60,123 nucleotides of DNA from a virus. Lineage: Duplodnaviria > Caudoviricetes. The notes beneath the pieces are model-generated. The model made no database searches, was not told the DNA's origin, and worked only from the letters and a program-made list of their open reading frames with translations. Each line of letters begins with the position of its first letter. Within the stretch, counting starts at the first letter, position 1. Made by a program: the position numbers and the translations under genes. The DNA lies in IMG/VR virus record IMGVR_UViG_3300025853_000086, positions 1 to 60,123 of that record. One strand, given 5' to 3'. This document shows, one piece after another, positions 1 through 60,123 of this stretch.

Positions 1-28
1 ACTAGGCAGGCATTTTGTACTGGTTGGT

Positions 29-460
29 TTACTTGCTGGCTTGCGGTTGCACTACCAGCTTAACGTATGGTGTGCCCCACGTTGCGCTGCTAGGGCTATA
101 GCCTCCTTGTAGCATTGCCATTAGGCAAACGGGTTTTTTGCTGCTATGCCCTAGTGGTTTAGCGGCTGCTAGTATTGCTGCTAGGCTAGTGTTACCTTCC
201 ACCCCTTGCAGCAACCAATCCTGTATAGTTTGGCGTACGCCGCCTGCCTTGCCGTTATAGCCAAACGGCACAGGGCTGCTAGTGCCTGCCTGTACATTTG
301 CCAGCGGCACAACTTGCACATTGTGTAAGTTGCCGCCTGCTGCTGTGTTAACCCATGCCCACAGTTGCGCGTAAGTAATTTCCTTACCGCCTGTAAACGT
401 GGCAACGTTTACTGTTGCTGCTGCTGTTGTGTTTTTTGTTGCTGTTTTTGCTTTAGCCAT
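29..460 (-). CDS. Hypothetical protein, GA/TC-depleted paralog of 1647-2075
   Basis: 143-aa ORF; differs from the second copy only by synonymous changes and one codon indel; shares SPVPFGY, GGVRQTIQDW, PLGHSxKKPVCL and GGYSPSS motifs with the paralog. Confidence 0.93.
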   Translation of the reverse strand: MAKAKTATKNTTAAATVNVATFTGGKEITYAQLWAWVNTAAGGNLHNVQVVPLANVQAGTSSPVPFGYNGKAGGVRQTIQDWLLQGVEGNTSLAAILAAAKPLGHSSKKPVCLMAMLQGGYSPSSATWGTPYVKLVVQPQASK

Positions 461-718
461 TTTTATATACCTTTAGTTGTGTGTGTGTTTTTGTGGCCTT
501 GTTTGCTGACCACGGAGTAATAGTAGCATTTTAGTGAACTATTGCAACCGTTGTAGCGAACTATTTTTTTGAGGATTTTATAGCATATACAGACACCACC
601 TGTCGGTGTCTGTGGCTTTCTAACTTCTCCTCTGTTGAGATGGGAATGGGAATGGGAATGGTTTATCTTAAGGCAGCAGCCACCAGTAACGCGACTGCCG
701 TCAGTGCAAAGAAAATCC

Positions 719-880
719 CTAGGAGCGCCATGTCGCCATCAGCCCTCCGGCTACCATGAGTAGGCAACCCTGCATTGCAATCAAGCCTAGCCAGAACAAC
801 TCTTGAGCTTCAGCTGCTGAACAGGCAACGATCAACCCTGTTATGAACAGGACCATACCAATGTTGTTTATCAGTCTCAT
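719..880 (-). CDS. Small two-TM membrane protein
   Basis: Two hydrophobic stretches; ATG at 880 has SD GAGAAAGG; upstream promoter at 916-944. Confidence 0.7.
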   Translation of the reverse strand: MRLINNIGMVLFITGLIVACSAAEAQELFWLGLIAMQGCLLMVAGGLMATWRS

Positions 881-915
881 ACCTTTCTCCGTATGTAGTG
901 TTGGTGTGCAAGTGT

Positions 916-953
916 AGTATGCCAAGCCGACACTGGGTGAGCTAGTCTTGTTT
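916..953 (-). promoter_or_regulatory. Sigma70-like early promoter
   Basis: AAACAAGAC-TAGCTC-N17-CATACT; near-identical motif at 6653-6691. Confidence 0.65.
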
Positions 954-1076
954 ATTCAACAATACTCCATAGAGGATGATTGATAATAACACCGAGATTG
1001 ATTGATAGTGATAGGTAGGGGGGAAATCCTCCGGAATCATCAATACTCTTCGTTTCTCTGGAATGGGAATGGGAGA

Positions 1077-1095
1077 AAGGGGGACAAGCCCCCTT
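1077..1095 (-). terminator. Hairpin terminator
   Basis: AAGGGGG-N5-CCCCCTT stem right after the ORF 1098-1361 stop, followed by a pyrimidine run on the minus strand. Confidence 0.6.
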
Positions 1096-1097
1096 AC

Positions 1098-1361
1098 TTA
1101 CAGATTAGACAAGAAGTCAGTCAGGTCTTGTAGCTGCTTATCGTCACAAACAATAAACGCCCCGAGACAGTTGACTTTTAAATAGTCATCATTAGTGTTG
1201 GTTATTGTAACGTCAGTCTGGTGTGTATACCCAGTAACCGAGATTTGGGTTAAATCATCAACCATTACCAACATGGTGTTGTCAGTCTTGTCAACAAACA
1301 ACGGTTGTATACCCACTTGGTCAAGGGATTTTAATACAGCATTAGTGCAAGCAGTAAACAT
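1098..1361 (-). CDS. Hypothetical protein
   Basis: 87-aa ORF with CTCATAGAAAGGAG leader; conserved in the second repeat copy. Confidence 0.85.
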   Translation of the reverse strand: MFTACTNAVLKSLDQVGIQPLFVDKTDNTMLVMVDDLTQISVTGYTHQTDVTITNTNDDYLKVNCLGAFIVCDDKQLQDLTDFLSNL

Positions 1362-1588
1362 AATCAGCTCCTTTCTATGAGTTTTATGGTATTTGTTAAT
1401 TACTACAAAGCCAGTATGCCAATAGACTTTTTGTGAAACAACCCCCCCCAGAAAAAGAAAGATATTGATTACTTATGTATATGTATACATAAGTAAAAGT
1501 CATCCTCAATCCTCCTCCTCTCGGGAAAGGGAAGGGAGAGGATGGGAGGGGAATGGGAAGTCCTCAATATTCATCCTTTTCGCAAGTC

Positions 1589-1613
1589 AAAAAAGAGGGA
1601 GCCGAAGCTCCCT
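1589..1613 (-). terminator. Intrinsic terminator
   Basis: AGGGAGC-TTCG-GCTCCCT (cUUCGg loop) followed by CTTTTTT, downstream of 1647-2075. Confidence 0.9.
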
Positions 1614-1646
1614 AATCACACACGTACGACTCAAGGAGTGGTCAGG

Positions 1647-2075
1647 TTAACCCTGAACCACCAGTTTGACAAACGGTGTCCCCCAATACTTGCTAGACGG
1701 GGAGTAGCCACCGTGCATGAGCGCGTGGAGGCAGACCGGCTTTTTGCGCGAGTGCCCAAGCGGAGCGGCCTTATTGAGCGCAGTCTTAAGACTACGGTCA
1801 CCGTCCACACCGCGTAGCATCCAGTCCTGTATAGTTTGTCGTACGCCTCCAGCGCGACCACCATAACCGAACGGTACAGGTGACGTGCTAGCCAGATCCA
1901 CGTTATCCAGTGGAACAATCTTCACGTTGGCCTCGTTACCACCGGCATGCTCTTGGACAAACTTCCAGATGTCACCGTATGAAAGCTCTTCACCGGTGAG
2001 ACAGAGCTCAGCCACTTTTACCTCGGCCTTCGCGACTGGTGCTTTCTTTACTGCTTTCTTAGCTGATGTAGCCAT
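1647..2075 (-). CDS. Hypothetical protein, normal-composition paralog of 29-460
   Basis: 142-aa ORF, strong SD, own promoter and terminator, full-length similarity to 29-460. Confidence 0.93.
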   Translation of the reverse strand: MATSAKKAVKKAPVAKAEVKVAELCLTGEELSYGDIWKFVQEHAGGNEANVKIVPLDNVDLASTSPVPFGYGGRAGGVRQTIQDWMLRGVDGDRSLKTALNKAAPLGHSRKKPVCLHALMHGGYSPSSKYWGTPFVKLVVQG

Positions 2076-2136: not shown

Positions 2137-2170
2137 ACTATACTCTCATTAGTTATCATTGCCAGTCTTT
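2137..2170 (-). promoter_or_regulatory. Sigma70-like promoter
   Basis: AAAGACT-GGCAA...TATAGT upstream of 1647-2075. Confidence 0.55.
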
Positions 2171-2344: not shown

Positions 2345-2779
2345 TCACGGCTCATGCTCTTTCTTCCTCGCATGGGCGATAATAAAATCAAGGAGGGCGG
2401 TCCAATCATACGGCCTCCCCGTTTCCCAATCCGGGGTCAACGCCTCACGGTCCTTCGTCCCCTCAGCTAGCTCCATGGCTCTTTCTCCTCCAAATAATTT
2501 GAGGGAGGAGGAGGAAGGATGACCAACAAGGTTCCAGACACTGCCCCCTTGATTTGAATACTGTACCTGCCATGCGATTTGGTGCGGTCTCAGGTCGATC
2601 TTTCTTATGACTTTTAATTGACTGACTTTTAGTTCAATCCAAAAGGAAGTACCGTCCTTCACTCCGTGAACATCAGGTACTCCGGGAGTAGCCCAAGTCT
2701 CGAGGCGTGTCCAAAACACGCCCGAGGCTTTAGTCCCTTGTTTTAACTTACTCCATAACTGGGACTCAGGTTTAGACAT
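2345..2779 (-). CDS. PD-(D/E)xK nuclease, VRR-NUC/Holliday junction resolvase-like
   Basis: E..LW, GVPDV, FWIELK and LRPHQIAW motifs. Confidence 0.8.
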   Translation of the reverse strand: MSKPESQLWSKLKQGTKASGVFWTRLETWATPGVPDVHGVKDGTSFWIELKVSQLKVIRKIDLRPHQIAWQVQYSNQGGSVWNLVGHPSSSSLKLFGGERAMELAEGTKDREALTPDWETGRPYDWTALLDFIIAHARKKEHEP

Positions 2780-3555: not shown

Positions 3556-4089
3556 TTAGTCTTCTTGCGTCGCTTCACCTTCGATCACTAGATTACCTTG
3601 CATAATCGCCTGTAGAGCAGGGAAGTCTTCTTGGAGTTGTTGTATTTCTTTAAGGACTTCCTCTTTGCTCATCTGGTCAATGCGCCCGTGCAAGATTTCT
3701 TTGCGATCTATGTACAATCCTGCTGCTTGGCCTCTAGACTTTTCCGCAGCGACAGCCGCAGCGAAATTGTTACCACTGAGGGCAGCATCACGGATCTCTG
3801 CTAGTTTTCTGACATGGCCTTCAAATGTGACTTCGTACTTGACGCCAAGCTCTTGTTTGATTTCTGCAATACGTTGATTGACCCTAGGGTTCAGCTTGAG
3901 CATTTGCGAAGCAATAGACGCAGCGGAGTTCTCACTGAATCCAGCACGGAGAGCGGCTTCTGTTTGGGTGACATCTTCGCAAGCAAAGATCATCGCAAAC
4001 TTTTCCTGCTTTGCAGTGAGATTCCTTACCTTGTCCGAGCGGACGGGCACATCCAACTTCTTTTTGTGAGTAACTTTTGGCAGAGCCAT
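3556..4089 (-). CDS. terS: Terminase small subunit
   Basis: LTAKQEKFA...TQTEAALRAGFSENSA N-terminal HTH typical of TerS. Confidence 0.8.
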   Translation of the reverse strand: MALPKVTHKKKLDVPVRSDKVRNLTAKQEKFAMIFACEDVTQTEAALRAGFSENSAASIASQMLKLNPRVNQRIAEIKQELGVKYEVTFEGHVRKLAEIRDAALSGNNFAAAVAAEKSRGQAAGLYIDRKEILHGRIDQMSKEEVLKEIQQLQEDFPALQAIMQGNLVIEGEATQED

Positions 4090-4331: not shown

Positions 4332-4370
4332 CCTGAACAGAGGTTATTGGTCAAAAATTGATCAACTTTT

Positions 4371-4465
4371 GAATTCTGTAAGACTTTTTTGAATTCTGTA
4401 AGACTTTTTGAATTCTGTAAGACTTTTTGAATTCTGTAAGACTTTTTGAATTCTGTAAGACTTTT
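4371..4465. repeat. Tandem array, 5 x 19 bp (GAATTCTGTAAGACTTTTT), iteron-like
   Basis: Copies start at 4371, 4391, 4410, 4429 and 4448; no spacers. Confidence 0.95.
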
Positions 4466-8561: not shown

Positions 8562-8801
8562 TCAGAACAGGTCGTTGTCGGTAGACCATGTTGCTCCTAT
8601 CCCGTAACCACATCCCGAGCAAGCTATTTGACACGTTACTTCAGCCAAGAGCATAAACTCTTTTCCTCCACAGAGCGAGCACACTAGAACATCAACAATT
8701 TCTTGTCTTGTTGTGACTGGGTCTACAGGTGGCTTTTCTCTCTTTCTGAATGGGACAACATTGCTTGTTGCATCCACGGGGGCGTTGGTCTTGTCTTCCA
8801 T
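8562..8801 (-). CDS. Zn-ribbon protein
   Basis: Two CxxC pairs; NVVPF motif. Confidence 0.7.
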   Translation of the reverse strand: MEDKTNAPVDATSNVVPFRKREKPPVDPVTTRQEIVDVLVCSLCGGKEFMLLAEVTCQIACSGCGYGIGATWSTDNDLF

Positions 8802-9226
8802 ACGCATAGTTTTGCCTTATCATTTATGTAGTAGCGGCGATACGCAGCAATCGGGTCGTGGTCTTTGTACTCAGGGGGCATGGCTTGCGCAAAAGGAGTG
8901 AACCCTTGGGCGGTCAGCTGCTGTGGCGCATTGGTGAGCAGTTGTAAAACTTTTTGACACCCATGCACCCTCCCATACCGGTAAGTGTATTCGTCACAGA
9001 GCGCCAAGCCAAGTTTGAGTAACCATTGGTAGTTGGTCAAGGTTTGGCCTGCCCACAACGTACAAGGATGTTTTTGATGCACCGGCTTGTACGGTCCTGG
9101 TTCGTCGTAGCGCCAGTGTACGGTGGACAGCATTTGGGTGGTCTCTAAGGGCATTTTGACAACGTGTTTGTCGCAATGCCACCGAGCGCATTGTTCGTGG
9201 TCCCAGTCTAAGAGGAATATGTTCAT
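8723..9226 (-). CDS. Pyrimidine dimer DNA glycosylase-like protein
   Basis: MNIF.LD, HCDKHVVKM.LE..QML, HPCTLW, EYTYRYG..H and AYR.YY motifs. Confidence 0.85.
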   Translation of the reverse strand: MNIFLLDWDHEQCARWHCDKHVVKMPLETTQMLSTVHWRYDEPGPYKPVHQKHPCTLWAGQTLTNYQWLLKLGLALCDEYTYRYGRVHGCQKVLQLLTNAPQQLTAQGFTPFAQAMPPEYKDHDPIAAYRRYYINDKAKLCVWKTRPTPPWMQQAMLSHSEREKSHL

Positions 9227-12289: not shown

Positions 12290-13270
12290 TTACAGTCTCC
12301 TCTCAAACCATTCGGTACAGGCTTTACGCCATGCTTTGTCTTCTATGCACATTGCTGTGAAAAACGCCCCTTCCTTATCCTTACCTTTCCACTGTTGCCA
12401 CGCTTGATACATAGGCACGGCGGTCTCGGCTATATACCTGTTTCTGTACTCATGGTCGCTTGACCCGTCATGCATGAACAACTCTAACTCCTGATCGAAG
12501 GTTGTTGGGTCGTCAACTAAATTAGGTGGTTGGTAGAGCACAATAGAGTCGTCTACGAGTTCGTAGTTGCTGTACTGTGGTTGCATACCTTGCAGCTTGT
12601 CTAATACCTCTACATAGGCGTGTAGATTGTTTGAAAACTGCACATAGTGCCCCACATGTAAACCAAGCATCTGCGCCATGTATTCCAACAACACCGACAT
12701 ATGTACGGCATTAGCACCGTATGCACCCCAGATCATATCGTTGCTGCGGTTTACCACAGTCATGTTAAGTGTTTCGTCCCGGACTTGGAAAAAAATCTGG
12801 GTGTTGCAGGGGTAGTCTTTGCCATCGTTGGTGGTTACTAGGTCATGGTTAGCATCCCACATACTAACCACTGTCCGGCGGTCGTTAGGGTAAGTAGTCA
12901 AGCGATGCATAGCTAACTTGAGTTGGTCTTTACCAAACCAATTGCGCCATCGGTAACCGTAAGCTCCGTGGAAAGAAACACCATCGTCGCTGTAGGTGTT
13001 TATCCTACCGTTGAACTGGTTGATCCATTTGACGTCGTTACGTCCGGCGAGCATCCAAAAGGCTTCCATCAAATGGAAGAAAGGGTTGGCGTCCCGCTCT
13101 GGGTAGAACAAGGCTCGTTCTCTGGAATGCGTGTAAGTAGTAACTACCGGAGTAGGGAACTCTAACACGGGACCATTGCGGGTCTGTACTTGTACTCCCA
13201 TTGCTTCGATCCCTTGCTTGGCAATATACAAAGCCTCGCTTACGTTTCTTGCTCGTATAGTGTGTGTCAT
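12290..13270 (-). CDS. Thymidylate synthase homolog, likely dUMP hydroxymethylase
   Basis: Catalytic DYPCN, NRSNDMIWGAYGAN (Asn at the dUMP specificity position) and NLHAY; start trimmed to MTHTIR. Confidence 0.88.
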   Translation of the reverse strand: MTHTIRARNVSEALYIAKQGIEAMGVQVQTRNGPVLEFPTPVVTTYTHSRERALFYPERDANPFFHLMEAFWMLAGRNDVKWINQFNGRINTYSDDGVSFHGAYGYRWRNWFGKDQLKLAMHRLTTYPNDRRTVVSMWDANHDLVTTNDGKDYPCNTQIFFQVRDETLNMTVVNRSNDMIWGAYGANAVHMSVLLEYMAQMLGLHVGHYVQFSNNLHAYVEVLDKLQGMQPQYSNYELVDDSIVLYQPPNLVDDPTTFDQELELFMHDGSSDHEYRNRYIAETAVPMYQAWQQWKGKDKEGAFFTAMCIEDKAWRKACTEWFERRL

Positions 13271-14550
13271 TCTTGTACTCCCATTGCTGCTTGCCAAATA
13301 CCAAAAAATTCTAACTTCTTATGGCACTTTTCCTGTAATTGTTTTGTTTCCTTTCCTGTCGCACAGCCTTGTGTGCTGTTGGCTAGGTCTATGTACTCTT
13401 GGGCTACGGCGGTATCGGCAAAGCGTTGGACAGCCGTGACATTGTTGTTAGCAATGGTTGTCCATTGGTTGCTATCGGTTAAGCCATTGTCGATTATGTC
13501 GGCAAACTCTTGGGGGGTTGCTGCGGCAGGTACCTCTATGTAGTTGACGCCCGCCGTGAACACCTTGCTGTTGTTCATACCTAGGTCGGTTGCCACAGGC
13601 ACCGCTCCGCAAATCATGGCTTCCATAGTTGTACGATTAAAATGCGCACCAAAGGCCGAATACTTTTTAGACCAACTGGGGTCTATCTGTAGCTTGCTGT
13701 CCCGCAGGAGGTGGTAGTGCATATCAGTAGGGATGGTGCCTACATACTCCATGCCGTGACGCAGGGCTTTGTCCCAGATACGGTCACCGGTTGCGTCAAA
13801 ATACTTAGGTTTGCATTTTTCTTGGCTAGTCATGTAGCGGTACTCTATCCCTGCGCCGCCTACTCGCTTAGGTTCTTTTGTTTTTAGGTGTGGTATGGCA
13901 CGGATTAACGTATCTACCCGCTTCCATGCTTTGAATACCTGCACTGCACAAAATCCGGCACGGGTTTCAAACTTCGACATAGGCACCGCATTAGTTAGGT
14001 CAAAGGGGTTTACAATCATTTTGCGGGGTATAGCAATACACTCCGCACTGTGATACGCAGACTCGTGTACGCAAACCATCGCGTGAAAATGATGCCCAAC
14101 CCAAGCCAGATGCGGGTACAGTTCGGGCAGGTTACCATCGTGTATGATGGCTATGTTTTTAGTCCCGCTGTTGTACAAGTCTAGCCATTCGTTAACGGCG
14201 GCGTTTTCTTTGTTGACGGTAGGCACAGGGATATGCCACAGGACGAAGTCGTACCCGCTGCATTTGTTTTTGAACTTAGCTCGCTCGTTAGGGTCTAGGT
14301 AAGCCACTTTGTTCTCGTTAGGCCACCACCATCCCCTAGCCTGATGGAAGAACAATCCTGTGCCGTGCTTGCGGTACTCTGCTAACACCTCTGGTTTTGG
14401 TCCACGGGTAACACCAAACTTCTTTTTAGGGCACAGCTTGACAAAGTCTACAGTGTGGCCTAGCTTGACAAAACCTGCTGCTAGGTTCTCCGCGTGGTTG
14501 ATAATACCGCCATAATCTTGGATGTCGAACAGGGTCATGAGTATTTTCAT
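13267..14550 (-). CDS. GT-B fold glycosyltransferase, putative DNA base glycosyltransferase
   Basis: N-terminal MKIL...YGG...LA..F...GHTV; C-terminal EAMICGAVPVATD. Confidence 0.85.
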   Translation of the reverse strand: MKILMTLFDIQDYGGIINHAENLAAGFVKLGHTVDFVKLCPKKKFGVTRGPKPEVLAEYRKHGTGLFFHQARGWWWPNENKVAYLDPNERAKFKNKCSGYDFVLWHIPVPTVNKENAAVNEWLDLYNSGTKNIAIIHDGNLPELYPHLAWVGHHFHAMVCVHESAYHSAECIAIPRKMIVNPFDLTNAVPMSKFETRAGFCAVQVFKAWKRVDTLIRAIPHLKTKEPKRVGGAGIEYRYMTSQEKCKPKYFDATGDRIWDKALRHGMEYVGTIPTDMHYHLLRDSKLQIDPSWSKKYSAFGAHFNRTTMEAMICGAVPVATDLGMNNSKVFTAGVNYIEVPAAATPQEFADIIDNGLTDSNQWTTIANNNVTAVQRFADTAVAQEYIDLANSTQGCATGKETKQLQEKCHKKLEFFGIWQAAMGVQE

Positions 14551-15452
14551 TAGTTGACAGCTCCTATAACAGGTGTCTTTGTTGTTGCTTGCTCCACACG
14601 GAACAGGCTCCGTGGTGTGCCCTGTTTTAGGCGCACTCTTTCATACTTGTCCCACTCGCACAGGCTATGCTCTATGGTGCGCATGTCTACATCTAAAACA
14701 GGAACGCATGAATCTTTTAAATGACGTCTTGCTACACACAGTAGATCAACCATCTCGTCGTTGGCTTGCTTTGAGTTAAGAGATTTTTTAAGGTCACGTT
14801 GGTGGATACGGTTCAATCCGCGTATTGCTCCAGGACCGGCGTTTGCCCATGTGAACTTGTCATAAGGCCAATGTAAGACAGGCGTGTAGCTGAGGTCGGT
14901 AACTACCTCATAAGCCATAAAACCCCCGCCTCCCCAACCTTTATATTGTCCTAACATTTTGTGCGTCAGTTCTAGGCTTCGGTTTTCTTGTATACTTTTG
15001 GTAATCTTGGTGCGGTCTTCCCAGATAGGGGTAAGGAATTTGTCGACTACTACCTCAGACTTTGGTAACTTGAGTCCTTGGTTAGTGATTATATAAGCTC
15101 CGGTGAAGGTTCTTTGCTTGCGAGCAATGCGTTGCTCTATCAGGCGCTTGGTTTCTTCTGGGTTCCAGTCGGTTACCCAACCGTGCTCTTCTGCAAACTC
15201 TGTAGTGCCAACCATGCGAAACAAACAAGTGTTGAACACTATCTGCTCGGCAGGTCTTCGGTCTTGTAGGTTAGTCCAGTTTTTGCGCATCCAAACGGTT
15301 ACCCTGTCGTTCTCGCGAAAAGGGTTAGTGAACTTGTAGTTGGCTAAGATAGGATCAGCTGTCCAAGGCGGGGGGTTACCCGCCGCCCTGTTCAGGTAGA
15401 TTTGGTGCCGCTCTTTTATCCAACCGAAAAAACTTTCTATAGCTTCGGTCAT
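14550..15452 (-). CDS. aGPT-Pplase1 / 5-hmdU DNA kinase helical-domain protein
   Basis: ERHQIY, PPWT.DPIL..YKFTN..RE.DR.T, FTGAYII, F.AYEVVTDL, GPGA.RGL and EH.LCE.DKY.R motifs. Confidence 0.88.
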   Translation of the reverse strand: MTEAIESFFGWIKERHQIYLNRAAGNPPPWTADPILANYKFTNPFRENDRVTVWMRKNWTNLQDRRPAEQIVFNTCLFRMVGTTEFAEEHGWVTDWNPEETKRLIEQRIARKQRTFTGAYIITNQGLKLPKSEVVVDKFLTPIWEDRTKITKSIQENRSLELTHKMLGQYKGWGGGGFMAYEVVTDLSYTPVLHWPYDKFTWANAGPGAIRGLNRIHQRDLKKSLNSKQANDEMVDLLCVARRHLKDSCVPVLDVDMRTIEHSLCEWDKYERVRLKQGTPRSLFRVEQATTKTPVIGAVN

Positions 15453-21326: not shown

Positions 21327-22148
21327 TTACATGACACCATCGTCAAATTCTTCTGGGGTAAGGTCATCGTCCGAAGCATCAACCTTCGCCGCTTCTTGTT
21401 CTTTGACCTGTACCTCACCTGCTTTTACAGATTTAGCAAACGCCATTGCCATATCAAACAGGGTTGCATCGTCTGGGTCTTGTGGGTTTAAACCACGCTC
21501 GCGTGTGATATCCCAACCGAACCACGAACCTTCGTCGTTTTGCTCGTGGACTGTTTTAGCACGGTACACTTGGGACATCAACGGCATGATATACACACCC
21601 TTGGCACCCTTGGCTGTTAAAGACTGGGCTTGGGTCATCCATTTACGGGCTTTCTTCAACTGGGTACTGGTCATCGTAATCAATGCACGTTGTGGGCCGA
21701 GTTCTGGGTGTAATACAAGTACAAAAAACTGTGCAGTATTTTGGAGATAGTTGCCATTGGGCAGCATATCTTGGTGGGTACGCTCATCCCTGCGGGTGGT
21801 TGCTACAATGGGGTCGGTTGGCTCATACGCCTGAACGTAACCACCACCTTGTTCGCGGGGCTTCCACTCTACAAACCTACGGCTGTAGTGGCAGGGAATA
21901 AGCTGGACACCTTCCTCGCCGTTGTACACTTCGTTAAGTACAGTATTAAAGAACATACCTTCCTCGGCACCTTCTACATAAGCACCGTCACGCTTATTTT
22001 TCTGTGGTGACATGGCTTGCAGAATACGCAGGAATGGGATGGCAAGGTCTTCGCTGGTTACTTCGCTAAAGCCTAGGTCGCCAAACTCTTCAAAACCCTC
22101 GTACACAGTAGGCAGGGCATCTGTTTTAGTTGCTACTTCTTTAGTCAT
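21327..22148 (-). CDS. Putative single-stranded DNA-binding protein
   Basis: DLAIPFLRILQ.MSPQ motif, acidic C-terminal tail, position in the replication module. Confidence 0.65.
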   Translation of the reverse strand: MTKEVATKTDALPTVYEGFEEFGDLGFSEVTSEDLAIPFLRILQAMSPQKNKRDGAYVEGAEEGMFFNTVLNEVYNGEEGVQLIPCHYSRRFVEWKPREQGGGYVQAYEPTDPIVATTRRDERTHQDMLPNGNYLQNTAQFFVLVLHPELGPQRALITMTSTQLKKARKWMTQAQSLTAKGAKGVYIMPLMSQVYRAKTVHEQNDEGSWFGWDITRERGLNPQDPDDATLFDMAMAFAKSVKAGEVQVKEQEAAKVDASDDDLTPEEFDDGVM

Positions 22149-22150
22149 GG

Positions 22151-22711
22151 TTATATTCCTTTCTTGGGAGTTACGATTTTTGTTTTTTCGCCTATAAACA
22201 AGCCAAACATGTCAGCGGGGATGTTAGCCCCTTTCTCGGTTTGGTCTTTTACAAACGCCTTAAGTGTCATGGGTTCTACCCACTTTTTAGTGCTGACTGC
22301 CATACCTTTCTGCTCGAGGTCTCGCGCAAACAGTTCGGCTTGCTCCTCTTGCCCACGCACAAAATTAGTAGCCACTTGGTTTTTGATTAAATCACCAAAG
22401 CCGTTATCCACTAACCAACTGAACGCTTGGTCGGTTTTATCTTTGGGGATGCTAGCACTGTAGAACTTACCTACAGAAACACTAGACCCGTCAGCTAATT
22501 CCAACTTGGATATGCCATACTCCGACATAGCAGCAGGTAGTTGGTCCTCGGAAATAGAGCGGAGTGCCTTTTTAGTTTCTTTTACTTCTTCCTCGAGTTC
22601 GGCAATGCGTAACTCTAAGGTTTGTTGGGTTCTAGCTAGGCTGCTAACCTTGCTGAGGCCTTGTTCGTCAACAGAAGAAAGTTCTCCCGCCGCTTGCTCA
22701 AAATCAACCAT
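22151..22711 (-). CDS. Conserved replication-module protein (coiled coil)
   Basis: AF.WL..NG.GDLIK and VEPMTLKAFV motifs. Confidence 0.75.
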   Translation of the reverse strand: MVDFEQAAGELSSVDEQGLSKVSSLARTQQTLELRIAELEEEVKETKKALRSISEDQLPAAMSEYGISKLELADGSSVSVGKFYSASIPKDKTDQAFSWLVDNGFGDLIKNQVATNFVRGQEEQAELFARDLEQKGMAVSTKKWVEPMTLKAFVKDQTEKGANIPADMFGLFIGEKTKIVTPKKGI

Positions 22712-23048
22712 CGGTAGGGTCTCCTGTTTTATGGTAAAGGTCTGCTTCTAAGGGGAGGTATTTGGCAAGCTGCCTGTCCCACTTAAGCATTTTGAATCTG
22801 CCATTGTTATGCCTACTAGCAATAGCAGCCGAAAGAGCAATAATCGCAGGGTCACCGGCAAGTAATATGTAGTCTTGGTCGTTAAACTTGGATAGCTTGC
22901 GGTTAATCTTGCGAATAGCAGGTTGGGTAGACCAAGCTGCTTGCTCCTCTGCGGGGATAAGTATTTCAAGATCGCCAAAGGTACTAGCGTCTGTAATGTC
23001 TCGGCCACGCACTTCTTGCGTTATGTAAACGGTCATGTCTTTCTCCAC
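22704..23048 (-). CDS. Conserved hypothetical protein
   Basis: DYILLAGDP and LKWDRQ..Y motifs. Confidence 0.8.
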   Translation of the reverse strand: MEKDMTVYITQEVRGRDITDASTFGDLEILIPAEEQAAWSTQPAIRKINRKLSKFNDQDYILLAGDPAIIALSAAIASRHNNGRFKMLKWDRQLAKYLPLEADLYHKTGDPTDG

Positions 23049-39025: not shown

Positions 39026-40087
39026 TTATACACTCCATCCAATACTAGCATCTATGTAACTCATGGTGATCTCACCAAAGTTAACATCAAAAGTTAAATC
39101 TGTAGCAGAACTAGCAATATTAGAGCCGTTCCTTGCTATAGTAAAAGATGTCGTAGCTGCCGCACCTGTACCATCTTTTATCCCTACAGTGTCACCTGCG
39201 CTTGGTGTAGCGGGTAAGGTAATAGTAATGCTACCCGCCGTGACTATTATAACGTCCCCAGAAACCGCTGTGTAGTTAGTGCCTTTCTGTATGGGGTATG
39301 CCGCTGCGCCTAGAGTTGTTCGCGCTCCGGCTGCCGTAGTTGCATTAGTGCCGCCGTTGGCAATAGGAAGAGTGCCAGTTACGTTTGTTGTGAGATTTGC
39401 GAACGTAGTTGAGGTGGTGCCGGTACCTCCGTTGGCAATAGGAAGAGTGCCAGTTACGTTTGTTGTGAGATTTGCGAACGTAGTTGAGGTGGTGCCGGTA
39501 CCTCCGTTGGCAATAGGAAGGGTACCCGTAACCTGAGAGGTAAGGTCGACGTTAACCAGTGTACCGCCAAGTGTAAGGTTTCCTGAACTTGTTACCGTAC
39601 CGGTCAGGGTTATGCCGTTTACCGTACCTGTACCGCCAACACTTGTTACCGTACCACCAATTTCTGTTGGGTTAGCGTTAAGTACCGCAGCGCCTGCGCC
39701 CGCACCGTCTGTGACGACCATTACTTTAGAGCCGTTTGGTACGTTTACCGTAGCGCCTGCCCCCTGTTTGATCGTAATGGTTTGACCACCGGTAGTAGCG
39801 TTGTCTATAATCCATATTTTACTAACAGTATTCGGTCCGAGAGTAATCACTCTTGTAGCCGTTAAACTAACCCCCGAAGTTATTTTTAAAAACATTCCTC
39901 TGGTAGGATCAGCACTGAAATCAGGAATAGTGAACGTCTCATCTGAGTCAGCAGCCATCGCTTTTGTGCCGTAGCCAAAAGCATCAGAAATCAACCCTAA
40001 GTTGGTGTTGGTGCTAGTGCCCCAAGTACCCGACTCGTCGCCTGTTGCGATCTCTTTTAGTCTAAGATCATTATCATAAGTAGCCAT
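39026..40087 (-). CDS. Tail fibre protein
   Basis: G/T-rich; GTLPIANGGT repeats; C-terminal ITLP.TPS.GD...GW domain. Confidence 0.8.
   Translation of the reverse strand: MATYDNDLRLKEIATGDESGTWGTSTNTNLGLISDAFGYGTKAMAADSDETFTIPDFSADPTRGMFLKITSGVSLTATRVITLGPNTVSKIWIIDNATTGGQTITIKQGAGATVNVPNGSKVMVVTDGAGAGAAVLNANPTEIGGTVTSVGGTGTVNGITLTGTVTSSGNLTLGGTLVNVDLTSQVTGTLPIANGGTGTTSTTFANLTTNVTGTLPIANGGTGTTSTTFANLTTNVTGTLPIANGGTNATTAAGARTTLGAAAYPIQKGTNYTAVSGDVIIVTAGSITITLPATPSAGDTVGIKDGTGAAATTSFTIARNGSNIASSATDLTFDVNFGEITMSYIDASIGWSV
39354..39520. repeat. Perfect 75-bp in-frame tandem duplication
   Basis: Units start at 39354 and 39429, with a partial unit at 39504. Confidence 0.92.
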
Positions 40088-54433: not shown

Positions 54434-56828
54434 TTCTGCCTCCAAAGGTTGGCGGGTTGGCTTGCCGTTGTGCAGACTGCTGCATGCGCATGGCTGCAAT
54501 GTCCTCGCTGGATTGTATACGCTCTCTGCCCAACGCGATGTTCTGGGCTTGGCGTTGTTGGTCTAAACGCAACTTTTCTTGATCGATTTGTTGGTCTGCT
54601 GCTTGGTCTTGCGCACGGAGTTCCAACTCCTGCTTCTTGATTGCCACCAACGGATCTTCGTCACCTTGTTGCGATGCCGGATTCTGCTGCTGGAACTGGG
54701 CGATCAACTGCGCTTGTATTTGGGCAACCATATCCTCATGCTGCTCGGGTGGCAACTGTTGTGCTTGCGGATTTTGCTGCATCTGTTGGTCGTGTATCAC
54801 GCGGGCCTGCAAACCAAGATGCTCGTAGATGTGCTTTTCCAAAGTCATTAGGACCGGCGGCTGCATCTGCGCCACGCGGGAGTTCATGTACGCCAAGTGT
54901 ACCGCAATATGCGCTTGGTGATCCTGCTCCGGGAATGCCTGCAACTTACCCTGCCCACCGGCAGCGGCACTTGCCTCTTGGTTCTCGGTGGCGGGGTCTT
55001 TAGGCTGCGGCTGCGGCTCGGGCTTGAGTATTTGGTCCACGTTCTGCACACCTAGGGCAGTGTAAACACGGCTGTAGGCCTCGCGTAAGTTGTGGAGTTC
55101 GGGTGCTGCTTGCGCCAATTTCAACTGCTCTTGGGCTAAAACCACTCGTTGCGACATGCTAAAGATGTTGGGATCGCTGACGGGAATGATATCCACCCTT
55201 GCGTCAAAATCTTCCGTCTTGATCATCGCTTCCACCCCTACCTCGTAAGGGTAAGGTTGGGGGTCTTGGGCAAATAACGCCGCAAGCATTTTTAACTCTT
55301 GCTTGAGGCTGCTATGTAGGCGCTTGTGTACGGCGCTGACTATCCGTGCCCCACGTTCTAGCAAAGCAATGGTTGTGCCAACGGGCATCTCTTGGTTGCC
55401 TTGGCCTACGCCCATGTCGGTAGTGCCTATAAACCGTTGGGCGGCCTCGACCACAAAACCCATCAACTGGAAAAGCGTCGCACTTGGCTCTTTGTACGGC
55501 AGCGGGATTATGCTGGCGCGTAAATCGCCTCCGGGAACGTCCACATCCCTAAACTCTCCTGGCTGGAGGGGATTATCGTCGTCGGCGATGCGCAAACCAC
55601 GCGCCTTGAACCCGCTAGGCATATTAGCCAAGGTACCGGCGTCTACTAACTGGCGCAGGGTACTGGTAGCCGTGCGTGATAAATTGCCCAACAAGTGAAT
55701 TAAGCCATAACCGTAAAACCCGAGTCCTGGAGTGAACTTGTAGTGGACAAAGTGCCGTATTTTATCCTTGCGGGGGTCTTCCATAAGGTAATTACGGCGT
55801 ATGCTGACTACGTCGCCTGAATCTTTGCACACAGTAACAATATACGGCAGTTTAATGCCAGATTCCTCGCCATCTGGGAGGAGGTCTGGGTACTCTGGAA
55901 TGTCCAAGTAGCAATGGCATTCGTAAAAAGTGAGTTGGGTGTCGGCACTGGCAGGGCTAACGCCGTCTATTTTGTCGTATTCTTCTTGGATTTGGTCTGC
56001 AGAATCACTGCCAGCAGTCACTTGTATGTCTAAATAGGTTCCGGCTACCTGCATTTTGCGGAATTCGTTCTCGGTTAGCTTAAAAACGTGTGTTACGCGG
56101 TCGGCTGATTGAAGATCGGTAGCAGTGTAGGGGACTATTACGTCCTCGGCGGGGATAAAGCGGCTTACGGGGCGACCTAAATTGTCATCCATGTAGACTT
56201 TTTTAAATGCACTGCCCGCCAAACCAACAAAGTAGAGCATTTGGTCGAATTCTGGCTCGAATTCTTCCATTTGGTACATCAGTTGGTAGTTCATGTAGTC
56301 TTGGACGCGTTGGGCTTGCTGCTCGGTAGCTGCGGAGGGCACACCAACAATGTTGGCTTTGACTGGCCCAGTAGCGGGGATCATCTCTTTGTACGCGCCG
56401 GACTGGAATTGCTGGACGGCCTCGTTCAAAACGGGGTGGGTTACGCCGGTGGCACCCATAAAGGGCTCGGTGCGGTTCTCGTAACGTAGGCCAAGCAGTT
56501 TGAGGCCTTTGGTGTAGGCTTGTTCCCAGTCTTGGCGGCTGGCGATATCGTCCTCGGCTGAGCCGGTGACATAAGCCGCCACGGCGACCAACGTATCGTC
56601 GGAAACTAACTCCGCTAAATTACCGTAAAAGTCGTCTGGCTCTTGGCCGAACATCTCTTCTTCGGGGCCAAACTCCACTAACGCGCCGCCTTGGTCATCG
56701 TCTTGGACGGTAACATTAAGGAAAGCGTCTTCTTGGTCCATGAGCTCTTGCTCGCCAATGCTCAGGGCATCGTTAGGAGCTTGTAGCAAAGCGCGGTCTA
56801 CGTTACTAGGGCGGACAGGGGTAACCAT
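54420..56828 (-). CDS. Portal protein
   Basis: 802 aa directly after TerL; GSAFKKVY, PGLGFYGYG and LRQLVDAGTL motifs. Confidence 0.88.
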   Translation of the reverse strand: MVTPVRPSNVDRALLQAPNDALSIGEQELMDQEDAFLNVTVQDDDQGGALVEFGPEEEMFGQEPDDFYGNLAELVSDDTLVAVAAYVTGSAEDDIASRQDWEQAYTKGLKLLGLRYENRTEPFMGATGVTHPVLNEAVQQFQSGAYKEMIPATGPVKANIVGVPSAATEQQAQRVQDYMNYQLMYQMEEFEPEFDQMLYFVGLAGSAFKKVYMDDNLGRPVSRFIPAEDVIVPYTATDLQSADRVTHVFKLTENEFRKMQVAGTYLDIQVTAGSDSADQIQEEYDKIDGVSPASADTQLTFYECHCYLDIPEYPDLLPDGEESGIKLPYIVTVCKDSGDVVSIRRNYLMEDPRKDKIRHFVHYKFTPGLGFYGYGLIHLLGNLSRTATSTLRQLVDAGTLANMPSGFKARGLRIADDDNPLQPGEFRDVDVPGGDLRASIIPLPYKEPSATLFQLMGFVVEAAQRFIGTTDMGVGQGNQEMPVGTTIALLERGARIVSAVHKRLHSSLKQELKMLAALFAQDPQPYPYEVGVEAMIKTEDFDARVDIIPVSDPNIFSMSQRVVLAQEQLKLAQAAPELHNLREAYSRVYTALGVQNVDQILKPEPQPQPKDPATENQEASAAAGGQGKLQAFPEQDHQAHIAVHLAYMNSRVAQMQPPVLMTLEKHIYEHLGLQARVIHDQQMQQNPQAQQLPPEQHEDMVAQIQAQLIAQFQQQNPASQQGDEDPLVAIKKQELELRAQDQAADQQIDQEKLRLDQQRQAQNIALGRERIQSSEDIAAMRMQQSAQRQANPPTFGGRNERR

Positions 56829-58291
56829 TAGTAGTAAATCCTTTGTCGTGGGACGGCAGGTTCGTCTTGGTAATCTTCTGGGTGACGTACAAAACCACCC
56901 TCCCTAAAACGGCGCAAGGCTTGGGTGACGGTATCCACGTAATCGTCGTGCTCCCCTGCGGGGAAAGCAGCACACTCGTCGATGACTTCTTCAGCCCATC
57001 GGCTGTCAGGTGCCCATACTAAACCACTTTCGAACAAGGGGGCAATGCTATTGACTCGCGTGTACTTATCGTTACCACGGCTAGGGCTGTAATTGCTCAC
57101 TGGTATACCCATTTGGCGCAACTCTTGGGTTAAAGGCATACCTGACGCCTTGGCCTCGATTAGTACACACTCGGGGTCCCAATACTTGTACTCCTCCATT
57201 GCAATGCGCCGCAACTCCGGGAAGTCCCACCTGCCACGTTTGGCATCCATTAGGATAATGTTGGGCGGGTCGCCATCTTGGGGGAAGAACACTCCCCATG
57301 TAGTAATAGCGGAGTAGTCGGCGGTGGTCTGCTTGCTAAAAGCGGTATCGTAACTTTGCAAAATGTAGCTCACGGCGGGCGGCTCTTCGGGCTTCCACGT
57401 TTGCCACCACTCTCGCTTAAGGATAGCAGAAACATCACTGGTAGGGTTTTGCTGCCACTGCGCTTGCCACTTACCAACCGACAAGCTACCTCGGACGGCG
57501 AGCAGGTCTTTCTTTTCCCAAAACTCAGGCCAGAGCGGCTCGTCCGTTTCGGGCATTAGAGCGGGGAACTCCACAATCTCCCACTTGTCGGCTAAGACAT
57601 CCCGCGCCTGTTGGCGCAACAACTTACCGGTTAAATCGTTTTCGGCCCAGCGGGTCATGACGATTACAATCGCCCCTCCTGGTTGCAAGCGTTGGCGCGG
57701 ACCACTGGTGTACCACTCGTACGCATGCTCTAAAGCCGTGGGGGAAAGGGCATCTTGCTCGGAATGCGGGTCATCGATGATCAACAAATCCGCTCCGCGC
57801 CCCGTAACCGCACCACCCACACCCGCCGCAAAATACTCACCGCCCTTACTAGTCTCCCACCGACCGGCTGCTTGGCTGTCGGCGCGTAGCTCCACGGCCT
57901 CAAACACAGCCTTGTACTCTTGAGAGTTCATTAAGTTACGCACCTTACGTCCAAACCTAAACGCCAGCTCGGCGGTGTGGGTAGTCTGCATAATCTTTAA
58001 GGTAGGCTTGCGGCCCATCAACCACGCGGGTAACAAGTAACTGCTAAACTCACTCTTGGTATGGCGCGGGGGCATATTAACAATAAGTCGCTTTAAAGAT
58101 CCGTCGGCTATACGGTCAAACTTCTCCGCCATAATCCGATGGTGCCTACCGTTAATAAACTCCGGCCAAACGGTTTTGGTAAAATCCATAAAATGGCTGC
58201 GGGCCGCTTCGGCTTGTTCTAAGCGCTTGGCTCGCTGGACTAACTTAGCGTACTTGCGTAACGATTCTTCCGGCAAAGAAGGCAAGGTCAT
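56828..58291 (-). CDS. terL: Terminase large subunit
   Basis: NMPPRHTKS, TGRGADLLIIDDP, SYDTA and HDDYVD motifs. Confidence 0.95.
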   Translation of the reverse strand: MTLPSLPEESLRKYAKLVQRAKRLEQAEAARSHFMDFTKTVWPEFINGRHHRIMAEKFDRIADGSLKRLIVNMPPRHTKSEFSSYLLPAWLMGRKPTLKIMQTTHTAELAFRFGRKVRNLMNSQEYKAVFEAVELRADSQAAGRWETSKGGEYFAAGVGGAVTGRGADLLIIDDPHSEQDALSPTALEHAYEWYTSGPRQRLQPGGAIVIVMTRWAENDLTGKLLRQQARDVLADKWEIVEFPALMPETDEPLWPEFWEKKDLLAVRGSLSVGKWQAQWQQNPTSDVSAILKREWWQTWKPEEPPAVSYILQSYDTAFSKQTTADYSAITTWGVFFPQDGDPPNIILMDAKRGRWDFPELRRIAMEEYKYWDPECVLIEAKASGMPLTQELRQMGIPVSNYSPSRGNDKYTRVNSIAPLFESGLVWAPDSRWAEEVIDECAAFPAGEHDDYVDTVTQALRRFREGGFVRHPEDYQDEPAVPRQRIYY

Positions 58292-58571
58292 AGGGCAGTG
58301 GCTCTTGGCTGAATGTTCAATGCGAATAATACACCATATATCGAAAATTTTTCTAGCACAATGAACCTACCCCCTCTTTTCTTGTTTAGGGGGGTGGGGA
58401 GCAGGGCTTTTGGTCGAGTAAAGTTCACTAATGATATAATGTTGTTGGTCCATCGAAGATTCGGGCAAAACATGGTTAGCCTAGGGCCAACCATAAGAGT
58501 GTCGTCTCTCAGGGGGGGTAGGGGGGGTAGGGGTGGCTTGGTGTTTTGTACCAAACGGTTTTTTAACGCGC

Positions 58572-58601
58572 AAAAAAATGCCCGCACTAGGCAGGCATTT
58601 T
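58572..58601 (-). terminator. Intrinsic terminator of the GA/TC-depleted gene
   Basis: AAAATGCCTGC-CTAGT-GCGGGCATTTTTTT. Confidence 0.85.
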
Positions 58602-58613
58602 GTACTGGTTGGT

Positions 58614-59042
58614 TTACTTGCTGGCTTGCGGTTGCACTACCAGCTTAACGTATGGTGTGCCCCACGTTGCGCTGCTAGGGCTATAGCCGCCTTGTAGCAT
58701 TGCCATTAGGCAAACGGGTTTTTTGCTGCTATGCCCTAGGGGCTTAGCGGCTGCCAGTATTGCTGCTAGGCTAGTGTTACCTTCCACCCCTTGCAGCAAC
58801 CAATCCTGTATGGTTTGGCGTACGCCGCCTGCTTTGCCGTTATAGCCAAACGGCACAGGGCTGCTAGTACCCGCCTGCACATTGGCCAGCGGCACAACTT
58901 GCACATTGTGTAAGTTGCCGCCTGCTGCTGTATTAACCCATGCCCACAGTTGCGCGTAAGTAATTTCCTTACCGCCAGTAAATGTAGCTACGTTTACTGC
59001 TGCTGCTGTAGTGTTTTTTGTTGCTGTTTTTGCTTTTGCCAT
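58614..59042 (-). CDS. Allele of 29-460 (GA/TC-depleted gene)
   Basis: Same protein minus one Thr. Confidence 0.93.
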   Translation of the reverse strand: MAKAKTATKNTTAAAVNVATFTGGKEITYAQLWAWVNTAAGGNLHNVQVVPLANVQAGTSSPVPFGYNGKAGGVRQTIQDWLLQGVEGNTSLAAILAAAKPLGHSSKKPVCLMAMLQGGYSPSSATWGTPYVKLVVQPQASK

Positions 59043-59287
59043 TTTTATATACCTATAGTTGTGTATGTGTGTGTGTGTGTGCCGCTGGGCACAGTTAAAT
59101 AATACTGTTTTTTGCCTTTATTGTAACCCCTTTATTTTAGAGGATTTTTTAGCATATACAGACACCACCTGTCGGTGTCTGTGGTCTTCTAACTTCTCCT
59201 CTGTTGAGATGGGAATGGGAATGGGAATGGTTTATCTTAAGGCAGCAGCCACCAGTAAGGCGACTGCCGTCAGTGCAAAGAAAATAC

Positions 59288-59449
59288 CTAGGAGCGCCAT
59301 GTCGCCATCAGCCCTCCGGCTACCATGAGTAGGCAACCTTGCATTGCAATCAAGCCTAGCCAGAACAACTCTTGAGCTTCAGCTGCTGAACAGGCAACGA
59401 TCAACCCTGTTAAGAACAGGACCATACCAATGTTGTTTATCAGTCTCAT
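59288..59449 (-). CDS. Allele of the 719-880 membrane protein
   Basis: One I/L change. Confidence 0.7.
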   Translation of the reverse strand: MRLINNIGMVLFLTGLIVACSAAEAQELFWLGLIAMQGCLLMVAGGLMATWRS

Positions 59450-59666
59450 ACCTTTCTCCGTATGTAGTGTTGGTGTGCAAGTGTAGTATGCCAAGCTGAC
59501 ACTGGGTGAGCTAGTCTTGTTTGTTCAACAATACTCCGTAGAGGATGATTGATAATAACACCGAGATTGATTGATAGTGATAGGTAGGGGGGAAGTTCTT
59601 CGGAATCATCAATACTCTTCTTTTCTCTGGAATGGGAATGGGAGAAAGGGGGACAAGCCCCCTTAA

Positions 59667-59852
59667 CTACCCCTCACTGATTTTTTCAAGCTGATACTCA
59701 TATGCCCAGTGACCGTTGTCTAAATCATAAGCAATGTCCCCTTTGTGAGGCTCACCGTCCTTTATTACTGTGGCTTGGACAGGATCCTCTATACCCCATC
59801 CGTCTCTCCACATCACCACGTCACCACTACTAAACTTGTACTTGTTACGCAT
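59667..59852 (-). CDS. Accessory 61-aa protein (SH3-like), present only in the right repeat copy
   Basis: F..GDVV.W pattern; SD AAGGGGG; flanked by 12-bp direct repeats. Confidence 0.75.
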   Translation of the reverse strand: MRNKYKFSSGDVVMWRDGWGIEDPVQATVIKDGEPHKGDIAYDLDNGHWAYEYQLEKISEG

Positions 59853-59869
59853 ATGTCAAGCCCCCTTAC

Positions 59870-60123
59870 TTACAGATTAGACAAGAAGTCAGTCAGGTCT
59901 TGTAGCTGCTTATCGTCACAAACAATAAACGCCCCGAGACAATTGACTTTTAAATAGTCATCATTAGTGTTGGTTATTGTAACGTCAGTCTGGTGCGTAT
60001 ACCCAGTAACCGAGATTTGGGTTAAATCATCAACCATTACCAACATGGTGTTGTCAGTCTTGTCAACAAACAACGGTTGTATACCCACTTGGTCAAGGGA
60101 TTTTAATACAGCATTAGTGCAAG
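59870..60123 (-). CDS. Allele of 1098-1361, truncated by the window end
   Basis: Identical translation. Confidence 0.85.
   Translation of the reverse strand, partial: CTNAVLKSLDQVGIQPLFVDKTDNTMLVMVDDLTQISVTGYTHQTDVTITNTNDDYLKVNCLGAFIVCDDKQLQDLTDFLSNL

Follow-up and report, generated by a model that had tools for sequence, protein, structure and literature searches.

A phage gene copy depleted of the GA/TC step, its unconstrained paralog and a possible link to thymine hypermodification

A GA/TC-depleted gene copy and its unconstrained paralog

The marine phage record IMGVR_UViG_3300025853_000086 (Duplodnaviria; Caudoviricetes), a single contig of 60,123 nucleotides (nt) that constitutes the whole window analysed here, carries nearly all of its genes on the minus strand and contains divergent copies of a gene for a small basic protein, one of which has, along with its flanks, lost almost every GA and TC dinucleotide. 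The depleted copy, here called A (29..460, minus strand), encodes 143 amino acids (aa), three of them Asp or Glu, with an isoelectric point (pI) of 9.89, and the unconstrained copy, B (1647..2075, minus strand), encodes 142 aa, 12 of them Asp or Glu, with 23 GA and 24 TC dinucleotides and a pI of 9.52. The two share 79 of 135 aligned residues (59%, BLASTP E 8e-59) over nearly their full length, and are thus a true paralog pair, as the original prediction made from this DNA had claimed. The first 500 nt of the window contain no GA and four TC, compared with 13-35 GA and 24-58 TC in each of the seventeen 500-nt segments that follow, and with the 20 GA and 43 TC expected from base composition in positions 1-505. 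The GA/TC-poor island around A (1..507; GA 0, TC 4) is truncated by the window start inside the terminator of A. A third copy, A' (58614..59042, minus strand; 142 aa), which had not been listed in the original prediction, was located inside a repeat of the window start, and is surrounded by a complete island of 630 nt (58510..59139). This island contains three GA/TC steps, all in Asp/Glu codons, where approximately 62 are expected at the genome density of 9.9 per 100 nt, excluding chance as its origin. The six longest GA/TC-free gaps in the genome all lie within the two islands (the next longest is 59 nt), and GA/TC is the sole outlier of this kind among the ten double-strand dinucleotide steps.

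Codon usage was compared between A' and B. In A', none of the nine Ser codons is TCN, the codons GGA, AGA/CGA, TTC, ATC, GTC and CTC are all absent, and no codon junction reads G|A or T|C; B uses TCN for six of nine Ser residues, uses all codon types that are purged from A', and has nine G|A and seven T|C junctions. As both codon choice and codon junctions are purged in A' and used in B, the target of avoidance is a nucleotide-level word. A protein-level cause (loss of tRNA-Asp/Glu, or a need for an acid-free protein) was rejected due to the concurrent purge of Ser TCN, TTC, ATC, GTC, CTC and GGA codons, and of codon junctions, leaders and promoters. Mutational bias, such as TC-directed deamination, was rejected as the sole cause since the adjacent and similarly built B is unaffected, replacement of Ser TCN by AGY takes multiple changes, and the synonymous differences between A and A' avoid new GA/TC steps. 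A and A' differ by 17 synonymous codons, no nonsynonymous codons and a one-codon indel; only one of the 17 synonymous differences creates a GA/TC step, compared with 96 of the 313 (31%) possible synonymous changes that would do so (binomial estimate, P about 0.02). The protein is under strong purifying selection, and GA/TC avoidance is still acting.

The earlier proposal that avoidance at the DNA level has reshaped the protein is borne out by the purge of flanks, synonymous codons and codon junctions. The three acidic residues of A all align with acidic residues of B (KEIT/EELS, QDW and GVEG/GVDG), confirming the counts of three and 12 and the shared positions given originally, and the remaining nine acidic positions of B are occupied in the alignment by T, T, K, Q, T, L, A, Q and N in A. 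Net charge is kept, with 11 Lys and Arg accompanying three Asp and Glu in A, and 19 accompanying 12 in B, leaving the pI of both near 9.5-10.

The extent of the purge was defined using 32 non-redundant depleted loci from the relatives described below, and runs from about -120 to about +60/+80 around the open reading frame (ORF). Combined GA and TC density in these loci is 0-2.4 per 100 nt at -100 to -21 and 0-1.1 per 100 nt at +1 to +60, compared with 7-13 and 14-23 per 100 nt, respectively, in the same intervals of B genes. For many divergent loci, a sigma-70-like -10 hexamer is predicted whose end lies about 51-56 nt ahead of the ATG, which places the predicted promoter and some upstream DNA inside the purge. 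Within the ORF there is a strand asymmetry, of a kind that fits transcription, as 46 depleted genes together contain five sense-strand GA outside Asp/Glu codons versus 41 TC. One GA is often permitted within the Shine-Dalgarno region (AGAAAGG, AGGAGG), and some lineages tolerate a single GA in the promoter spacer. In 49 depleted or half-depleted loci the stop codon is TAA or TAG, and never TGA. Downstream, the island stops at a conserved GAGAC, past the terminator and a tract rich in C; in the window this edge is formed by AGGGGGGGT, repeated 2.6 times (58511..58533) and C-rich on the strand of the gene. The island lies 219-325 nt upstream of the terminase large subunit gene (terL) in the window and in relatives, and the intervening gap has normal GA/TC density. 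The purge is limited to a single unit, extends over the promoter, and affects template-strand TC more strongly, which together point to a DNA-level, transcription-linked cause. In many relatives the C-rich tract between the depleted gene and terL is followed by GAGAC and a conserved word containing ..AAGTTTTGGACAAATCTTCGAG.., and possible roles for this element are those of a Rho-type terminator, a late promoter region and a packaging site.

A consensus scan found a promoter-like site and a hairpin/T-run terminator for B (CTGGCA-17-TATAGT, 2137..2165, and 1596..1613, both minus strand) and for A' (GTTACA-17-TATTAT, 59099..59127, and 58579..58593, both minus strand and within the island). The claim that each copy has its own promoter and terminator is in part borne out, as a prediction, for B and A', with the qualification that such sites are no more numerous than in shuffled sequences and that the terminator of A (29-460) is cut by the window start. 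The word AAGACTKG, which the promoters of B genes share, shows no enrichment in the window (6 occurrences versus 4.3 expected). In RNA libraries, B was covered as a discrete stretch (1617-2113) by metatranscriptome contigs from four runs, in agreement with a monocistronic unit but short of proving transcription, and the region of a hydrophobic 68-aa ORF (719..925, minus strand), located in a variable cassette region between B and A, was likewise covered. Only 31-nt low-complexity matches were seen for A, the alleles of which diverge fast, and such contigs cannot rank genes by expression.

Distribution of the two copies and features of the protein family

Relatives of B were found in marine and other aquatic metagenomes (241 at E <= 0.001 among 257 candidates), and the 120 that were listed all have 10-16 Asp/Glu residues. 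In IMG/VR, 134 loci were recovered, giving 135 sources with the window, of which 107 have two copies, 26 have one copy and two have three copies, showing that the two kinds of copy co-occur in genomes, a point that the original prediction had put up for checking. Gene order is conserved on a single strand, running from the terminase small subunit gene (terS; 3556..4089, minus strand; PF03592) through small ORFs, a 144-aa nuclease-like protein (2345..2779, minus strand; phrog_2165 and phrog_93), which is the conserved upstream neighbour of B, then B, the second copy, terL (56828..58291, minus strand), which is the conserved downstream neighbour of the depleted copy, and the portal gene. Searches of 50,697 phage records with the region and with B by blastn/tblastn gave zero matches.

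The 159 distinct complete ORFs comprise 71 B-type genes (median GA 24, TC 26, Asp/Glu 12) and 88 second copies. Among the latter, 46 are depleted (median GA 1, TC 0, Asp/Glu 0), three have no GA but 16-23 TC, eight are intermediate, and 31 are near normal (median GA 10, TC 26, Asp/Glu 7). The ORF is intact in all 46 depleted genes, the products of which have a median pI of 10.06 and often lack Asp/Glu altogether. Both GA and TC are entirely absent from 17 ORFs, and 27 of the 159 encode no Asp or Glu. The acidic residues retained in A had been proposed as functional; this does not hold, given these acid-free members and the low occupancy of the three columns in question, which are acidic in 43%, 7% and 18% of depleted rows. 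B is acidic at 11 alignment columns, where an acidic residue occurs in 0-43% of the rows of depleted copies and in 0-59% of those of relaxed second copies (10-59% for ten of the columns), indicating that acidic residues are preferred there and that the DNA constraint keeps them rare. When 1.84 billion cluster representatives were searched with a profile, 100 members of the family emerged, and the 72 representatives of 120-260 aa are bimodal in acidity (15 with no Asp/Glu, 22 with one or two, three with three to six, and 32 with at least seven).

Near-complete relatives with a depleted copy (G001, G003 and G005) have exactly one island each, located at the depleted gene, and that of G003 includes 539 nt with zero GA/TC. 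No island is present in G006 and G007, in which the second copy is not depleted, or in G010, which has one copy. In a quick maximum-likelihood tree built on 143 columns, all B copies (76 rows, all normal) form one clade with 100% support in the Shimodaira-Hasegawa-like approximate likelihood ratio test (SH-aLRT), and second copies form a grade on which all four depletion labels need at least 13 changes and the normal label at least five; the trait itself alters the protein, making the branch order among second copies uncertain.

AlphaFold2 modelling with a 76-sequence alignment gave a confident alpha/beta domain (predicted local distance difference test (pLDDT) 88.7, predicted template modelling score (pTM) 0.79), preceded by a predicted disordered N-terminal tail rich in Lys, Ala and Thr. 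G46, G70, R79, Q83, P113, C115, A118, G122, G123 and Y124 are invariant in the 76 sequences, and H108 is present in at least 90%. The conserved His and Cys singled out by the original prediction remain candidate functional residues, H108 being slightly less constant than C115, and are joined by the equally invariant R79, Q83 and Y124. Pfam and PHROGs searches with A, A' and B gave nothing significant, a Pfam search with the 76 aligned members at E 0.1 gave scattered chance hits only, a PDB sequence profile search gave 0 hits at E 10, and only clusters of viral hypothetical proteins were matched in the ESM Atlas. The absence of a known structural family among the homologs, in these sequence-family searches and in the Foldseek comparison given below, agrees with the original suggestion of a new family.

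One of the 100 representatives, P0191 (420 aa), has the A/B domain (residues 59-193) ahead of an HNH_2 nuclease domain (PF13391, E 9e-11). The N-terminal domain of P0191 was not found in 185,579 species genomes, in which only the HNH part was matched, being common in bacteria. Of ten bacterial HNH_2 relatives of the P0191 C-terminus, nine lack a Pfam-recognised sensor domain, including one that carries an extra HNH and a HIT domain, and the tenth has DUF3427. A search for longer members returned only P0220, the other part of which belongs to a ribosomal-protein Pfam family. As many members lack any Asp/Glu, a carboxylate-dependent enzyme is unlikely, and judging from sequence the A/B protein is most likely a non-enzymatic basic DNA-binding factor, possibly a reader of the phage's own modified DNA. 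The HNH_2 fusion provides a lead to a DNA-sensor role, and the originally suggested modified-base-binding function likewise stands as a lead, through this fusion and through the kinase described below (found in 10 of 10 relatives). The family is phage-restricted and without a known relative, and may be considered a candidate new reader of modified bases.

A possible link to thymine hypermodification and competing explanations

The window encodes a 5-hydroxymethyldeoxyuridine (5-hmdU) DNA kinase (14550..15452, minus strand; PF18723, E 1.6e-52, 179 bits versus a cut-off of 25), which is adjoined by a group-1 glycosyltransferase (13267..14550, minus strand), and a thymidylate-synthase-like protein (12290..13297, minus strand; PF00303, E 6e-24) that, by analogy, is a candidate dUMP hydroxymethylase. 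Its kinase shares about 35% identity with the kinases of M6-like Pseudomonas phages, and a PF18723 kinase was found in 10 of 10 near-complete relatives tested. The kinase, accompanied by the ThyA-like protein and the neighbouring transferase, likens the window to the kinase-bearing phages M6, ViI, phiW-14 and SH-Ab 15599; neither a modification-free island nor the A/B family is known from these phages. Kinase-pathway hypermodification is reported at TG/TC in M6, ViI and phiW-14 (PMC6449724), and at TG and less at TC in the Acinetobacter phage SH-Ab 15599 (PMC13458397), that is, at T before G or C, whereas the context proposed here is TC and not TG. Bulky C5 groups are reported to block Escherichia coli and Bacillus subtilis RNA polymerase, probably at initiation (PMC4838386), and template-strand modifications are reported to matter for T7 RNA polymerase too (PMC11550810).

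The explanation we tentatively favour, as one that is possible while still short of probable, is that the phage's own thymine hypermodification takes place at TC, and that A provides a DNA-binding factor with a transcription unit free of the modification. The phage would make a hypermodified thymine derived from 5-hmdU via the kinase, the pathway in this clade would act on T preceding C, and each TC, and each opposite-strand GA, would mark a bulky base that may block RNA polymerase. Purged of GA/TC, the A unit (promoter, 5' leader, ORF and terminator) would carry no bulky base, and could therefore be bound and read by unaided host RNA polymerase whatever the modification state of the genome. 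B would be the unconstrained copy with the preferred acidic residues, and A would act either first, as a bootstrap, or last, as an escape from a coat formed by A itself. A more specific version, which we regard as distinctly unlikely, holds that A is a self-insulated pioneer gene and the sole unit without TC, that its product is a reader licensing host RNA polymerase on hypermodified DNA or shielding that DNA, that the genome boots from A and switches to B, and that bacteria captured the reader as an HNH sensor (P0191).

Palindrome usage fits protection of TC sites by modification, with a consistent though weak trend and non-independent genomes: among 6-bp palindromes, avoidance is weakest for the class with TC/GA in 7 of 7 genomes, and, of the four T contexts, strongest for TG/CA in 6 of 7. 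GC-only 6-mers are strongly avoided (mean log2 observed/expected -2.3 to -3.1 in the 6 genomes that could be scored), as expected if T modification cannot protect sites without T, and this avoidance leaves the loss of a bare dinucleotide in one unit unexplained. In the window, GCGCGC, GCCGGC and CCGCGG have log2 observed/expected values near -4, and in G003 both GGCC (0 versus 42 expected) and GCGC (0 versus 34 expected) are missing.

Several observations weigh against the favoured explanation. It gives no account of the transcription of the other roughly 80 genes. The kinase is also present in G006 and G007, which have two copies of which neither is depleted, and in the single-copy G010; being present in all 10 genomes, three of which lack an island, it was rejected as the determinant of depletion, and the kinase alone does not impose the purge, since kinase-bearing genomes without an island exist. 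The M6-like phage PAE1, which has the kinase, shows no island for any dinucleotide step, and phages known to carry hypermodified T evidently manage transcription with no arrangement of this kind. When three depleted and three non-depleted relatives (six genomes only) were compared using the window ORFs, no discriminating gene was found. The palindrome signal is individually significant in one of seven related genomes (G007, p 0.015), and is present in island-free genomes too. Foldseek comparison with PDB and BFVD gave best E values of 1.9 and 1.5, respectively, and nothing at E <= 0.001, leaving the predicted fold without a match. In the relatives L003 and L082, the flanks are about 96% identical to the window and the A ORF is only 78-85% identical, with 28-29 GA/TC steps. 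As the purge is relaxed here in a near-identical background, the selective agent appears to vary on a fine scale, as would, for example, a host factor. Relative to the window, these two have 15 synonymous and 2 nonsynonymous codon differences in B, and 51-55 synonymous and 16-19 nonsynonymous differences in the A ORF, and a promoter region that is 97% identical; the pattern looks like cassette-like allele exchange at the A ORF.

The main rival explanation, which we consider unlikely, is that a host defence acting on TC/GA-containing DNA drives the purge, with A as a defence-proof counter-defence or essential factor, and B as the better protein when the defence is absent or neutralised. Candidates would be a DarT-type thymine ADP-ribosyltransferase, a cytosine deaminase with a preference for TC, or a nuclease or binding protein that depends on modification. 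An agent that varies by host strain would account for depleted and non-depleted alleles in near-identical backgrounds (L003/L082), for the repeated relaxation of the purge on the tree (at least five changes for the normal label and 13 for all four), and for the lack of a phage gene separating depleted from non-depleted genomes among the six compared; the involvement of the promoter and both strands, and the fusion of one homolog to HNH_2, an architecture typical of modification-dependent restriction enzymes, also point this way. However, no defence is known to read a bare dinucleotide, DNA damage would hit the other roughly 58 kb anyway, such that shielding one gene helps only if the damage is reversible, and the tie of the family to kinase-bearing phages (10 of 10) suggests a link with the phage's own chemistry. 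Next in rank, and quite improbable, is self-escape, in which putative binding of the A/B protein to GA/TC or modified T would coat or silence the DNA, for example before packaging, with the A unit, lacking sites, continuing production. This would explain why the island always holds a member of the A/B family, the protein being itself the GA/TC-directed agent, and would suit a basic protein with kept net charge and a Lys/Ala/Thr-rich N-terminal tail, encoded by genes that lie in the packaging module between terS and terL and are each monocistronic with a promoter-like site and terminator. The strand asymmetry is unexpected for simple occupancy of double-stranded sites, and lineages with two non-depleted copies exist (G006 and G007).

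RNA-level immunity, by which A mRNA lacking GA (and UC) would escape a host or phage endoribonuclease in the manner of ACA-less mRNAs and MazF, ranks next and is clearly improbable. GA/TC steps are five to ten times scarcer in the predicted untranscribed promoter (-100 to -61, with the starts being predicted) than in B promoters, the enzyme would need to target two unrelated RNA dinucleotides where double-stranded DNA has the single step GA/TC, and no RNase of such specificity is known. What speaks for it is the stricter avoidance of sense GA than of TC, with three genes avoiding GA only, together with the tolerance of a lone Shine-Dalgarno GA and a few Asp/Glu codons, as for a per-site cleavage risk, and a downstream limit that follows a C-rich tract that could be transcribed. 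Very improbable, and last in rank, is a packaging or genome-end element, either a pac/cos region cut on hypermodified DNA or the first-entering DNA, with coding secondary. The position of the island 219-325 nt upstream of terL in the window and relatives, the conserved C-rich repeats and GAGAC at its downstream edge, the clustering of contig ends of relatives in or next to A, and the start of the window inside the A terminator are all compatible with such an element; strain variation can, however, cause contig breaks, the protein is under strong purifying selection with an intact ORF in 46 of 46 depleted genes, the island limits track the transcription unit and not the gap to terL, in which GA/TC density is normal, and the strand asymmetry within the ORF is unexpected for a terminase site.

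Known systems resemble the arrangement in part. A reader domain joined to HNH_2 is the architecture of modification-dependent restriction enzymes, and P0191, one of 100 representatives, has a comparable layout; the Foldseek comparison gave no fold likeness of the A/B protein to SRA, EVE or PUA readers. Phage SPO1, in which thymine is replaced by a 5-hydroxymethyluracil (hmU) derivative, encodes TF1, a basic protein of small size and high abundance that is able to bind DNA containing hmU. TF1 is a member of the HU family and is not known to have a motif-free gene copy, whereas A and B match no Pfam family, PDB sequence, or solved or viral predicted fold, and no HU/IHF fold or Pfam match was found for them (76 members, Pfam E 0.1; Foldseek E <= 0.001). 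The early anti-restriction genes carried on first-entering DNA, such as T7 0.3, encoding Ocr, and those of conjugative plasmid leading regions, share with the A unit, as proposed here, a strong host-type promoter and the logic of a gene whose function is needed ahead of a safe or usable genome. No case in which a whole dinucleotide has been removed is known. Ocr is reported to be a very acidic DNA mimic with 34 acidic residues per monomer (PMC4872106). In contrast, A (pI 9.89) and B (pI 9.52) are basic and many homologs are acid-free, which does not fit a DNA mimic. ACA-less mRNAs facing MazF, and CpG suppression in vertebrate viruses facing ZAP, are examples of a short word being avoided to escape a recognising factor; in A, by comparison, avoidance is total, local to one transcription unit, and present on both strands with the promoter included, two amino acids have been removed from the protein, and an unconstrained paralog is present.

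A limited keyword search of the literature found no description of a dinucleotide-free gene or of the A/B family, and both the phenomenon and the protein family appear to be undescribed. Selection on a two-base DNA step has stripped two amino acids from a protein that is predicted to remain folded and functional, and has done this in numerous lineages of phages that are abundant in the sea and related to HTVC023P-type pelagiphages. Should TC be the modification context, the island would be a natural readout of where hypermodification acts and of its cost to transcription, and would reveal how an infection can begin from DNA that is unreadable; the alleles, which range from depleted through half-depleted to relaxed, form a natural control series.

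Genome setting and further sequence observations

The closest cultured phages by terminase large subunit are the Pelagibacter phages HTVC027P (61.7%) and HTVC023P (58%). Replication genes identified in the window encode a family A DNA polymerase, a UvrD-like helicase, an archaeo-eukaryotic primase (AEP) and an SNF2 protein, and the structural and packaging genes include the two terminase subunits, an SU10-like portal and a capsid protein. A DUF932 protein and a cell-wall hydrolase are also encoded, as are a homolog of pyrimidine-dimer DNA glycosylase (8723-9226; PF03013, E 3.9e-6) and genes resembling Pam3 gp32-gp34 (21327-23048), which provide a tie to a cyanophage gene set.

The window ends form an imperfect direct repeat (58586-60123 versus 1-1351), with 41 mismatches (about 3%) across four long blocks, several indels and a 203-nt insertion (59654-59856). 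The insertion carries a 61-aa ORF (59667-59852) that is found in the relative L002 at 95%. Either the assembly of a mixed population wrapped around a map that is circular or terminally redundant, or the repeat is genuine and has diverged. Contig ends of the relatives (L001-L134) cluster in or beside the depleted gene several times above an even spread, with approximately 22 right ends at most 202 nt from the final family hit, and 8 left ends at a distance of up to 120 nt; strain hypervariability, low-complexity sequence and physical genome ends are possible reasons.

The variable cassette region between B and A also contains an 87-aa ORF (1098..1361, minus strand), and arrays of GGGAAT-type hexamers lie upstream of each small transcription unit in this region (637-661, 1060-1074 and 1524-1560, and again at 59206-59230 and 59629-59643). 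With up to two mismatches allowed, GGAATGGGAATGG occurs 13 times versus 1.1 expected, and some relatives have phased A-tract repeats (AAAAAAGTT) in place of these arrays. An intergenic array at 4367-4465 consists of 5.2 copies of the 19-nt unit TTTTGAATTCTGTAAGACT with 98% identity; it resembles iterons, and an origin or a set of binding sites for a regulator is a possible role. A 75-nt tandem repeat (39335-39520; 2.2-2.5 copies, 91-100% matches) lies within a 353-aa ORF (39026-40087) in the structural region.

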